This document shows positions 15,414 through 17,445 of a DNA stretch of 32,000 nucleotides, piece after piece. How positions within the stretch are numbered: position 1 is the stretch's first letter; every line of letters starts with the position of its first letter. Source of the DNA: Chloroflexota bacterium (lineage in GTDB: Bacteria; Chloroflexota; Anaerolineae; UBA4142); NCBI GenBank assembly GCA_016219275.1, contig JACRBM010000076.1:18255-50254 (forward strand). Direction: 5' to 3'. The notes beneath the pieces are model-generated. The model made no database searches. It was not told where the DNA came from and worked only from the letters and a program-made list of their open reading frames with translations. A program made the translations under genes and the position numbers.

Positions 15414-15680
15414 TCATCCACAGACCGGCTCGCGCTTGCCGGTCACCGCAGCGTACATCATCGCCGCCGCGCAACCCACGCCGCTATCTACCGTGATCGC
15501 GTTCGTCGGACAATTGAGCTGGCACGCGCCGCACTCCATACAATTTTCCGCGTGCGCGACCGTGATCGTGCGACCATTGCGATTGAACACCGCGTGCGGA
15601 CAAACCGTGTAACACATTCCACACCCGTTGCATTCAGTCGGATTGAATTGGAGCGTGGTGGTTTGATAGGCGTTGAACAC
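15414..15680 (-). CDS. hgcB: HgcB, dicluster 4Fe-4S ferredoxin of mercury methylation
   Basis: CNGCGMCYTVCP and CMECGACQLNCPTNAITVDSGVGCAAAM, C-terminal CG; adjacent to hgcA; GTG start at 15680 preceded by GGAGGA overlapping the hgcA stop (alternative TTG start 15692). Confidence 0.93.
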   Translation of the reverse strand: MFNAYQTTTLQFNPTECNGCGMCYTVCPHAVFNRNGRTITVAHAENCMECGACQLNCPTNAITVDSGVGCAAAMMYAAVTGKREPVCG

Positions 15681-15681
15681 G

Positions 15682-16680
15682 TTATCCTCCAATCATCCGA
15701 ATGATCGGCAACCCGATCATCAGCGCGATGCCGATGGCGAACATCCACGCCATCACCGGGACATACGTAAAGATTTCGCGTTGGACGCCACTCCGTGAGG
15801 TGAACGTCGTCGAGCCGGTGAAATTCAATGCCAGGAATGCAGTGATGGGTGGAAAAATCAACAGCGGAACAATCGCTTTGCCGGCGCGCAACCACCCCAC
15901 CGCGTCCGCGTTGCCTTGCCACGACGACACGACGAGCGGAAGCGCGACCAACGCGCCGAGCAAAAATCCCTTGGCGCTGAAATCGTGCGTTGGCAGCCAG
16001 GGCAGCAGAATTGGGAACACGACGACGCCGGCGAGAATCGCGGCGACGACCGCGAGCGACGAGACCCAGCCACCGAACAAATAAGCCACTGCCGCGCCAA
16101 TCAACAGCGGAATCAATCCGCCGACGATCTCGACTGGAATGACTGCTAACCGATCACGCAAAGTGAATCGGACGCGGCGCATCTCCGGCGTGGCTTCGCG
16201 GCGCGTGAGATATTCGGACAGATCCGCCGCGCGGACGGGACCGTACTCGACCTTGAAGCTGGTGCGTTTTTTGATTTCGTGCGCGGCAATGCCCGGCGCG
16301 CCGAGTTGCGGCGCGATCACGACGCGATGACTGACCCGGTCGCGCAGCCCGGTCGCTTCGATGCGCTGTGCTAGTTCGTCCGTGCCAAATGTGCCTTTGC
16401 CGGCGGCGCACCAAACATTGATGGCTTGTGTGTCGAGCACCAAGATGTACGCATTCATCCCGCCAAGCGCCGACCGGAGCGCGTCGAAACTGAGCGTGTA
16501 ATTCGCCGTGACAAACACCGGCGAATCCTGGGTCGGATTTCCGAGGGCGTACAATCCTGGCTCGACGCGATGCCCCATCCGATTGATTGCCCAGCGCGCC
16601 AGGATGTGATCCCAGCGATTCGCCCACGTGAGGACACTTGTCGTCGGTCGAACGATCCGATCATTTGTCTCTGACATCAT
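15682..16680 (-). CDS. hgcA: HgcA, corrinoid-dependent mercury methyltransferase protein
   Basis: Cap-helix motif NVWCAAGKGTFGT (NVWCAAGK at 16396-16419), about five C-terminal TM segments, conserved LNFTGSTTFTS; followed by hgcB. Confidence 0.96.
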   Translation of the reverse strand: MMSETNDRIVRPTTSVLTWANRWDHILARWAINRMGHRVEPGLYALGNPTQDSPVFVTANYTLSFDALRSALGGMNAYILVLDTQAINVWCAAGKGTFGTDELAQRIEATGLRDRVSHRVVIAPQLGAPGIAAHEIKKRTSFKVEYGPVRAADLSEYLTRREATPEMRRVRFTLRDRLAVIPVEIVGGLIPLLIGAAVAYLFGGWVSSLAVVAAILAGVVVFPILLPWLPTHDFSAKGFLLGALVALPLVVSSWQGNADAVGWLRAGKAIVPLLIFPPITAFLALNFTGSTTFTSRSGVQREIFTYVPVMAWMFAIGIALMIGLPIIRMIGG

Positions 16681-16695
16681 TCTTCCCTCACACGA

Positions 16696-17445
16696 TCACG
16701 GTTTGCGCGCGGTAATGATCGCCGAGAATGGCGCGTGCACGGGCAGCGACGACAAACCGGCATCAAACTTGCCCTTCGGCTCGACCCTGACATCCACAAA
16801 CCCAGCTGCTTGCAATCCGCCGATGTAATCTTGCATATCGAGCGCGCCCGCTACGCACGCGCCCCACGCTTCCAGACTTTTCTGCACCGCGATAGGCAGT
16901 TCGCCATTCGTTACAATATCCGAAACGGAAACTCTGCCGCCCGAACGCAACGCGCGATAAATATCGCGGAACACTTGTGGCTTGTCCGGCGAGAGATTGA
17001 TCACACAATTGGAAATGATCACGTCCGCTTCGCCGTCCGCTACGGGCAAATGTTCGATGTACCCTTCGCGAAACTCGACGTTCGTGACCCCCAGACGCGC
17101 CGCGTTCACGCGCGCTTTGGCGAGCATCTCCGGCGTCATGTCCACACCGATTACGCGACCGGTCGGTCCGACTCTCTGCGCCGCGAGAAAGCAATCGAGT
17201 CCGCCGCCTGATCCCAGGTCTACGACTGTTTCGCCAGGTTTCAAACTGGCAATCGTGATCGGATCGCCGCACCCGAGTGAAAAGTTGGCGATGTCTTCGG
17301 GCACCGCGTTCGCAAGTTGATCGGGATAGTTCGAGTTGCAGTCACACGCGCTCGGACCGCAACAACTGGACGCTTGGCGCGCGATATCCGCATAATGATC
17401 CCGCACCGAACTCCGAATTTCATCTGGCGCAATTACGTTCGACAT
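16696..17445 (-). CDS. arsM: Arsenite S-adenosylmethionine methyltransferase
   Basis: VVDLGSGGGLDCFLAAQRVGPTGRVIGVDMTPEML, VIISNCVINLSPDK, Cys-rich SSCCGPSACDC; start MSNVIAPDEIRSSVRDHYADIA at 17445 with upstream GGAGG. Confidence 0.93.
   Translation of the reverse strand: MSNVIAPDEIRSSVRDHYADIARQASSCCGPSACDCNSNYPDQLANAVPEDIANFSLGCGDPITIASLKPGETVVDLGSGGGLDCFLAAQRVGPTGRVIGVDMTPEMLAKARVNAARLGVTNVEFREGYIEHLPVADGEADVIISNCVINLSPDKPQVFRDIYRALRSGGRVSVSDIVTNGELPIAVQKSLEAWGACVAGALDMQDYIGGLQAAGFVDVRVEPKGKFDAGLSSLPVHAPFSAIITARKP

Follow-up and report, generated by a model that had tools for sequence, protein, structure and literature searches.

A probable ArsR-controlled methylation operon joins arsM to the mercury-methylation genes hgcAB in a groundwater Chloroflexota genome

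Methylmercury is a neurotoxin of food webs, which gives public-health weight to two open questions: what the mercury-methylation pair hgcAB is for, and what controls it. A 32,000-nucleotide (nt) stretch of a public, metagenome-assembled groundwater Chloroflexota genome (assembly GCA_016219275.1, contig JACRBM010000076.1, positions 18,255 to 50,254; hereafter the window) raises both questions. Here hgcA and hgcB lie directly 3' of arsM, encoding an arsenite methyltransferase, and of arsR2, encoding an ArsR-family regulator, all on the minus strand. Do these neighbours share a regulator, and if so, which signal would it obey? We propose, with a probability of about 0.72, that arsR2-arsM-hgcA-hgcB is a repressor-controlled methylation operon situated beside a separately controlled ars detoxification unit. 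The genes and sites on which this reading turns are these:

17947-17974, minus strand: promoter of the arsR2 unit, TTGACA and TATAAT 16 nt apart, agreeing with the consensus at 12/12 positions
17952-17967, unstranded: operator box O1, ATAGACAAATTTCGAT on the coding strand, one mismatch to ATAGA-N6-TCTAT, between -35 and -10
17925-17940, unstranded: operator box O2, ATAGAAGGTTGTCTAT, matching the palindrome perfectly and directly adjoining the arsR2 start codon
17604-17924, minus strand: arsR2, ArsR/SmtB-family regulator of 106 amino acids (aa)
17560-17575, unstranded: operator box O3, ATAGACAAGTGTCAAT, one base off the palindrome, located between arsR2 and arsM behind seven consecutive T
16696-17445, minus strand: arsM, short-form methyltransferase, 249 aa
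15682-16680, minus strand: hgcA, corrinoid protein
15414-15680, minus strand: hgcB, 2x[4Fe-4S] ferredoxin, 88 aa

The comparison set comprised 168 other loci (80 HgcA loci in species-representative genomes, 80 on metagenome contigs, 4 around close HgcA relatives and 4 around ArsR2 homologues), whose DNA we scored by tblastn with the window proteins; individual loci are cited by L numbers.

The original prediction had placed arsM, hgcA and hgcB at these coordinates, co-directional and separated by 15 and 1 nt, and all of this is borne out. The gene identities hold as well, since all three proteins exceed curated NCBIfam cut-offs and keep their diagnostic residues. The hgcA ATG (16680) lies 15 nt past the arsM stop and follows GAGGGAAG, and its TAA stop (15684-15682) is followed 1 nt later by the GTG of hgcB (15680), which has GGAGGA upstream. 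HgcA contains a CdhD/CFeSP-like domain, yet placement by profile models leaves it clearly where it had been put: it scores 425.5 bits on the HgcA_corrinoid equivalog (NF040863, cut-off 275), far above its scores on the HgcAB-like fusion family (200.8 bits, cut-off 285) and on the ACDS gamma subunit of the CFeSP family (73 bits). The predicted motifs are all present: the cap-helix NVWCAAGK (residues 88-95, with the Co-ligating Cys91), invariant in a 32-sequence alignment; LNFTGSTTFTS; and a multi-transmembrane C-terminus, in which a simple Kyte-Doolittle scan finds five hydrophobic segments (180-198, 208-226, 234-252, 269-287 and 309-327). HgcB passes its equivalog model (HgcB_ferredoxin, NF040864) by a narrow margin, with 104.9 bits against a cut-off of 99. 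It carries the two expected cysteine clusters, CX2CX2CX3CP at Cys17-27 and Cys47-57, as well as Cys70 in a conserved GVGCA context, a candidate counterpart of Cys73 in the protein from Pseudodesulfovibrio mercurii ND132, and the predicted C-terminal cysteine, a single Cys87 (tail EPVCG). Among 148 extracted HgcB tails, CC is terminal in 29 and falls inside the final six residues in 45; a further 56 show only single or spaced cysteines in that stretch, and 18 show none. HgcB is identical to MBI5304736, and the public HgcA record, MBI5304737, starts one codon later (331 aa, 15682-16677). As these records are labelled 'ferredoxin family protein' and 'carbon monoxide dehydrogenase', respectively, surveys based on annotation would miss the locus.

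ArsM, identical to MBI5304738, is translated from an ATG at 17445 (GGAGGA upstream) to a TGA at 16698-16696. It scores 309.8 bits on the NCBIfam arsenite methyltransferase model PRK11873 (NF008823, cut-off 263), and its best matches among solved structures are ArsM entries (5evj, 4kw7 and 4fr0); it was also aligned to 4fs8. Alignment to 5evj shows that C28/C29 (CC), C59 (GCG), C147 (SNCVINL), C197 (GACVAGAL) and the S-adenosylmethionine (SAM) motif DLGSGGG are all kept; we take the cysteines to correspond to the As(III)-binding Cys44, 72, 174 and 224 of CmArsM. These cysteines are retained in 15 of the 17 hgcAB-linked ArsM copies, the window's included, and every hgcAB-linked methyltransferase scored with NCBIfam exceeds the ArsM cut-off. 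In L004 and L100, where arsM also precedes hgcA, the protein is 292-295 aa long and has Ser in place of the Cys aligned with window Cys59, and may be a variant with altered arsenic binding. Pairwise identities of ArsM and HgcA correlate (Spearman 0.57 over 136 non-independent pairs); we did not use this co-divergence as evidence of co-transfer because it is compatible with co-inheritance and inseparable from the species phylogeny.

Control of arsR2-arsM-hgcAB by an ArsR-family repressor is well supported by the promoter and operator sequences. ArsR2 (identical to MBI5304739) matches Pfam HTH_5 (PF01022, E = 6.3e-13) and NCBIfam HTH_metalloreg (NF033788, 85.1 bits, cut-off 55). A 23-nt inverted repeat spanning its promoter and start codon resolves into two copies of a 16-bp palindrome, ATAGA-N6-TCTAT. 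The top three matches to this palindrome in the 32-kb window, with 0-1 mismatch, all flank arsR2, and the 8-mer ATAGACAA occurs three times where 0.40 would be expected, every copy at the arsR2 locus. A structured leader RNA in the arsR2-arsM spacer was considered and rejected, as the spacer folds no better than its shuffles (z = -0.97); Rfam gave no family above threshold anywhere in the window, and the direct-repeat families found there were discarded as short chance matches inside coding sequence.

The same arrangement recurs outside the window. The arsR2 promoter and operator are near-invariant in 17 aligned loci whose HgcA is 55-83% identical to the window's, with the consensus CTTGACAAATAGAC-N4-ATCTATATAAT-N5-7-ATAGA-N6-TCTATATG, whose last three letters, ATG, start arsR; the position equivalent to O2 is kept throughout the alignment. 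Across the 1.50 Mb of loci there are 37 perfect ATAGA-N6-TCTAT boxes against 1.45 expected from base composition, and 35 of the 37 lie no more than 2.5 kb upstream of hgcA. An O3-like box stands directly 5' of the first structural gene after arsR in the relatives, whether this is arsM or hgcA. The boxes also occur where no regulator gene adjoins them. Two perfect copies flank a TATAAT some 70-110 nt upstream of hgcA in the cultured Firmicute Desulfosporosinus nitroreducens P130 (L059:6840-6910), which has no adjacent arsR; thus, the operator appears to travel with hgcAB across phyla. At L083 (7790-7900) the arsR reading frame is cleanly deleted, leaving ATG CGT TAG, and the promoter, O1, O2, the T-run and O3 are retained ahead of hgcA-hgcB-arsM. 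The same metagenome-assembled genome (MAG) encodes an 86%-identical ArsR2 on a different contig (L165), and the set resembles a regulon with a repressor able to act in trans, an argument that relies on MAG binning. In the literature searched we found no report combining hgcA, ArsR and an operator.

How far does the unit extend? A single transcript, as had been predicted, is plausible on the layout: the genes are co-directional, the gaps are 15 and 1 nt, and each gene has a ribosome-binding site. In the relative L088 the arsM stop even overlaps the hgcA start as ATGA. We found no credible terminator-like site between arsR2 and a hairpin at 14329-14300, the lone scan hit (16110-16086) lying inside the hgcA coding region. 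The unit therein probably continues through two further genes to that hairpin:

14988-15332, minus strand: small membrane protein, 114 aa, with no Pfam family even at E<=1
14393-14941, minus strand: extracytoplasmic function (ECF)-type sigma factor, likely the last gene of the arsR2 unit
14300-14329, minus strand: terminator-like hairpin 3' of the sigma-factor gene, 12-bp stem with 7 G-C pairs and a T-rich tail

The small membrane protein has tblastn matches in L002, L081, L082 and L165, either 3' of hgcB or beside arsR2, and the ECF sigma factor is kept in the cluster of L002, L081, L082, L095, L115 and L165. Because the two recur as a pair with hgcAB or arsR2 (L002, L081, L082 and L165), they seem to belong to the same regulon, and finding a sigma factor in a unit under repressor control suggests a further tier of regulation.

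A survey of hgcAB neighbourhoods for arsM, which the original prediction had called for, showed the linkage to be recurrent and enriched in the near clade; its suggestion that the arsM-hgcAB operon itself might be novel fell. The order arsR-arsM-hgcA-hgcB is found in at least six other contigs (L001, L004, L088, L096, L098 and L135), with one extra gene in L100, and a publication of 2020 already described hgcAB with ars genes including arsM. In L020 (a Methanoperedens MAG) and L159, arsM-hgcAB occurs with no arsR detected, at tblastn thresholds that miss divergent ArsRs. Seven loci carry arsM 3' of hgcB instead (L002, L081, L082, L083, L085, L086 and L133). At HgcA identities of at least 60%, arsM is directly upstream in 7/39 evaluable loci, downstream in 5/37 and anywhere in the flanks in 8/29; this last figure is 2/42 at 50-60% identity and 1/25 below 50%. 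The arrangement is recurrent and clade-enriched, not unique to the window.

The regulator also has a life apart from hgcAB. We picked seven ArsR2 homologues, the four collected above and three more, 73-86% identical and on long contigs, and read the called genes around them. A SAM methyltransferase gene lies directly 3' of the regulator in 7/7, an ArsM-like enzyme (249-272 aa) is present in 6/7, and the three ArsM-like copies that were scored (L166, L167 and L168) all exceed the NCBIfam ArsM cut-off. None of the seven has hgcAB within 4-5 kb, and the promoter and operator recur in those with DNA available. In L168 the order is arsR2-arsM-arsR1-arsP-trx-arsC-acr3, the island of the window but for hgcAB. 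This constant pairing of ArsR2 with a methyltransferase in loci that lack hgcAB suggests that arsR2-arsM is the basal module and hgcAB its optional cargo, in which case hgcAB would have joined the arsR2-arsM regulon in part of the lineage. Within the cluster arsM itself appears to have moved. The closest relatives, L081 and L082, are ordered arsR2-hgcA-hgcB-membrane protein-ECF sigma-(CMD)-arsM; the window ArsM is 83-92% identical to the copies 3' of hgcB in the closest relatives, and some 80 nt of the 5' flank of window arsM are also found at the L082 copy, which together point to relocation of arsM from the 3' end of the cluster into the slot between O3 and hgcA. A second SAM methyltransferase, of 204 aa, occurs in 3/7 of the sampled loci (L165:5380-5994, L166:5389-6003 and L170:3621-4235), often first after ArsR2 and before or in place of arsM; it has Methyltransf_11/UbiE-type domains, belongs to no NCBIfam family, is about 25% identical to ArsM and is absent from the window.

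In the window, arsR2-arsM-hgcA-hgcB is preceded by a five-gene ars unit (21484-18006), so that 11 co-directional minus-strand genes, from arsR1 through the ECF sigma factor, lie between 21556 and 14300. The upstream part comprises:

18006-21556, minus strand: upstream ars unit arsR1-arsC-trx-arsP-acr3, promoter included
21556-21528, minus strand: arsR1 promoter, perfect sigma-70 consensus TTGACA/TATAAT
21122-21484, minus strand: arsR1, first gene of the upstream ars unit
20577-21014, minus strand: arsC, low-molecular-weight phosphatase type
20258-20599, minus strand: ArsE-like thioredoxin of the MTH895/ArsE family
19218-20261, minus strand: ArsP-family permease
18006-19121, minus strand: acr3, 429.8 bits against an NCBIfam cut-off of 282.8

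A consensus scan found two perfect TTGACA/TATAAT promoters on the minus strand, one before arsR1 and one before arsR2. Since each precedes its own arsR, the island is probably two separately regulated units; the ATAGA-N6-TCTAT box is absent from the arsR1 promoter. A 21-nt inverted repeat (19105-19125/19157-19177, 95% complementary, 31-nt spacer) lies between the ArsP-family permease gene and acr3, and could be a processing, attenuation or binding site within the upstream unit.

Our model for the operon is as follows. ArsR2 dimers would occupy O1, O2 and O3 and block transcription, until a thiophilic effector bound to the Cys26-27 and Cys80-81 pairs released the repressor. The best candidates for this effector are As(III) and methylarsenite, favoured by the constant partnership of ArsR2 with arsM and by the neighbouring ars genes. 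ArsM would then methylate As(III) with SAM, and HgcAB, made at the same time, would serve as a membrane corrinoid/ferredoxin methyltransferase, likewise using SAM and able to methylate Hg(II). With hgcAB placed under the regulator of arsM in this way, mercury methylation would answer that regulator's signal and not mercury. The original prediction had contrasted a SAM-type with a corrinoid-type methylation route. The two acceptors and the two catalytic strategies stand, but the donors do not differ: purified HgcAB is methylated by SAM via methylcobalamin (PMC11588087), so that ArsM and HgcAB both draw on SAM.

Several points weigh against this reading. ArsR2, aligned by eye with the R773 regulator, lacks the R773-type As(III) site (ELCVCDLC, helix 3) and reads ISVNDIV there; its effector is uncertain for this reason. 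To our knowledge, no Chloroflexota isolate has been shown to methylate mercury. The seven-T run before O3, together with a G+C-rich hairpin 3' of arsR in several relatives, means that arsR2 may form a separate transcript, with arsM-hgcAB expressed from a weaker internal promoter. The only candidate we could see by eye at O3 is a degenerate TTGCTC and CAATAT, 18 nt apart and with a TG extension, and the consensus promoter scan lists none there. Survey counts depend on the tblastn thresholds used and come from scans of at most 80 loci, often on short contigs, and the seven ArsR2 homologues are a selected sample. In strain ND132, arsenic resistance did not drop significantly on deletion of hgcAB by the study's own summary, although its abstract gives greater As(V) sensitivity, and the level of hgcAB transcript was no predictor of methylation rate (10.1101/2022.10.17.512643).

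The alternative that survives best accepts the operon and changes its signal. ArsR2 could sense S-adenosylhomocysteine (SAH), Hg(II), Cd/Zn/Pb or a persulfide, which would make this a methyl-cycle or thiol-stress unit and leave hgcAB unresponsive to arsenic; we regard this as the less likely signal, if one to be taken seriously. The protein has cysteines at positions 25-27 and 80-81, of which only Cys26-27 and Cys80-81 are conserved in the clade, and so presents two vicinal pairs instead of the classical CVC site. Vicinal pairs, however, serve the As(III)- and MAs(III)-sensing regulators AfArsR, CgArsR and SpArsR. The window's canonical ars genes are under a different regulator, ArsR1, whose promoter lacks the box, and the ND132 regulator responds to SAH as well as to arsenic, its four-cysteine site having been noted as compatible with Zn, Cd or Pb (10.1101/2022.10.17.512643). 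Against this, arsM is the commonest gene directly 3' of ArsR2, and the arsR2 module abuts arsP-arsC-acr3 in L168 as it does in the window.

It is also conceivable, if unlikely, that HgcAB acts on arsenic within the ArsM regulon, for instance by methylating As(III) or methylarsenite through its corrinoid in the absence of oxygen, and that mercury methylation is a side reaction. A different native reaction, halomethane dehalogenation, has been proposed for HgcAB in a 2026 preprint.

Equally improbable in our judgement is passive clustering, in which hgcAB sits in a metal-resistance island with no functional or regulatory tie to arsM and owes its place to island shuffling. Gene order is indeed fluid, arsM being 5' in some loci, 3' in others and absent from most; ArsR2-arsM modules occur without hgcAB, and in the close relative L084 no ars gene lies near hgcAB. 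Yet the same box stands before hgcA also at loci without arsR (L083, L085 and L059), the arsM-hgcAB linkage survives rearrangements within one lineage, and the gaps are tight, down to the overlap in L088. Moreover, some 28% of loci in the near clade have arsM no more than 7 kb away, where a rough, uncomputed estimate for a one- or two-copy gene would be below 1%.

A role for this 'ArsM' as a dedicated HgcAB partner, methylating the HgcA corrinoid or sharing a non-arsenic substrate, as is supposed of the corrinoid protein-associated methyltransferases (CpaM) found beside HgcAB-like fusion proteins, is very doubtful. The methyltransferase-hgcAB linkage is persistent in the clade, the CpaM family (NF043040) is among the weak NCBIfam matches, and the second, 204-aa methyltransferase often accompanies ArsR2. 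But the window protein scores only 45 bits on CpaM (cut-off 180) against 309.8 on the ArsM model, the As(III)-binding cysteines of the solved ArsM structures are all kept, here and in nearly all hgcAB-linked copies, and ArsM orthologues are common without hgcAB. Purified HgcAB, furthermore, accepts the SAM methyl group without a helper protein (PMC11588087).

Finally, selenocysteine (Sec) read-through of the arsM TGA into a fused ArsM-Sec-HgcA protein is scarcely credible: the TGA (16696-16698) and the hgcA ATG (16678-16680) do share a frame, 18 nt apart (…RKP-TGA-SCEGR-MMSET…), with a Cys two codons 3' of the TGA, and N-terminal Sec/Cys-rich extensions have been proposed for many HgcAs (10.1101/2022.07.06.499078) and are visible as CU/CC extensions in distant loci, but read-through is possible in 0/8 relatives with arsM 5' of hgcA, the arsM stop being out of frame in six (TAA in four, TAG in L098, TGA as the ATGA overlap in L088) and further in-frame stops intervening in the two same-frame relatives (L020 and L159), while the near-clade HgcA N-terminus is a conserved M-(S/A/T)-E-T without extensions, the motif at the TGA is U-S-C and not C-U, a shared frame arises by chance one time in three, and the window has no tRNA-Sec or sel gene and no convincing hairpin beside the TGA. 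Because the shared frame is unconserved in relatives, we judge it coincidental. The selenoprotein form of HgcA with an N-terminal CU extension (Haft 2022) was likewise rejected for the window, its sole upstream in-frame TGA being the arsM stop, with the wrong motif and no conservation.

Set against known systems, the repressor-controlled operon is not a new kind of system, because hgcAB-ars linkage, ArsR control and arsenic induction are already published and the gene order recurs. Flanking of hgcAB by acr3, arsC, arsR and arsM in MAGs appears in Fig. 6 of McDaniel et al. 2020 (PMC7438021) and was cited again in 2023, and co-localisation of arsC, arsB and arsM with hgcAB in MAGs from Rifle was noted by Gionfriddo et al. 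(10.1101/2022.10.17.512643). The neighbours acr3, arsC, arsR and arsM seen there are those of the window; these reports are descriptive, and include no shared operator, variable arsM position or hgcAB-free ArsR2-arsM modules. In ND132, ArsR control and arsenic induction of hgcAB have been demonstrated, and the ArsR-like regulator responds to arsenic and SAH (10.1101/2022.10.17.512643). The ND132 arrangement arsR2-hgcA-hgcB (Goni-Urriza 2020; Gionfriddo et al. 2022/2023) resembles the window in having an ArsR/SmtB gene directly upstream and co-directional, and in both hgcAB belongs to an ArsR regulon. The two regulators, likened by description, each have Cys after helix 2 and before the last helix and not the R773 site. 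In contrast, the window has arsM between regulator and hgcA and a full ars unit abutting, and comes from another phylum, whereas ND132 has no ars gene at its hgcAB locus and no ArsM homologue besides the methyltransferase domain of SahR; the ND132 study makes no mention of an operator or promoter such as the window's.

Canonical arsR-arsM and ars operons (4fs8, 5evj) share with the window the ArsM cysteines, the SAM fold and the standard arsR1-arsC-trx-arsP-acr3 set; unlike them, the window module carries hgcAB, the small membrane protein and the ECF sigma factor as extra cargo, and its short ArsM, of 249 aa, is without the C-terminal domain of the algal enzymes. The HgcAB-like fusion and CpaM (NF043039 and NF043040) likewise place a SAM-type methyltransferase gene beside an HgcA-like corrinoid gene, but the window proteins, as given above, fall under both of those cut-offs and above those of true HgcA and ArsM. 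What appears to be unreported in the literature searched is the conserved operator and promoter, the arsR2-arsM basal module and the shifting place of arsM in the cluster. Incremental as they are, these results give a regulatory model that can be tested where there had been a loose co-localisation.

As a natural case of hgcAB built into an arsenic-methylation module, the locus is unusually clean. A consensus promoter with three boxes, a named regulator and arsM as its usual partner make the arsenic link testable, and useful natural variants exist: arsM before or after hgcAB, and arsR deleted yet encoded elsewhere in the genome. The cultured strain at L059 is usable for operator testing. Should ArsR2 be arsenic-responsive, one would expect arsenic geochemistry to gate the capacity for mercury methylation in Chloroflexota-rich aquifers and sediments; should HgcAB act on arsenic species, this would be its long-sought native function.

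Beyond arsR1, on the plus strand, the ars island is adjoined by a three-subunit complex iron-sulfur molybdoenzyme (26049-31304), made up of an Fe-S subunit (26049-26840), an NrfD-type membrane anchor (26858-27988) and a 1092-aa molybdopterin subunit (28026-31304). The top match of the last is TtrA, with 444.7 bits far under the cut-off of 1750, and ArrA gives only 125. On its 5' side (21680-25806, plus strand) are a PhnD-like periplasmic binding protein (21680-22636), a sensor kinase (22633-24582) and a NarL-type response regulator (25159-25806), a trio that we take to resemble the arsenite-sensing AioXSR/ArxXSR systems. Conserved linkage of the molybdoenzyme and two-component system with hgcAB was considered and dropped, since something similar occurs only in L084. 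Between sensor kinase and response regulator (24606-25142, plus strand) lie two small open reading frames of 100 and 74 aa; from their size and position, our guess is a toxin-antitoxin-type pair inserted in the two-component operon.

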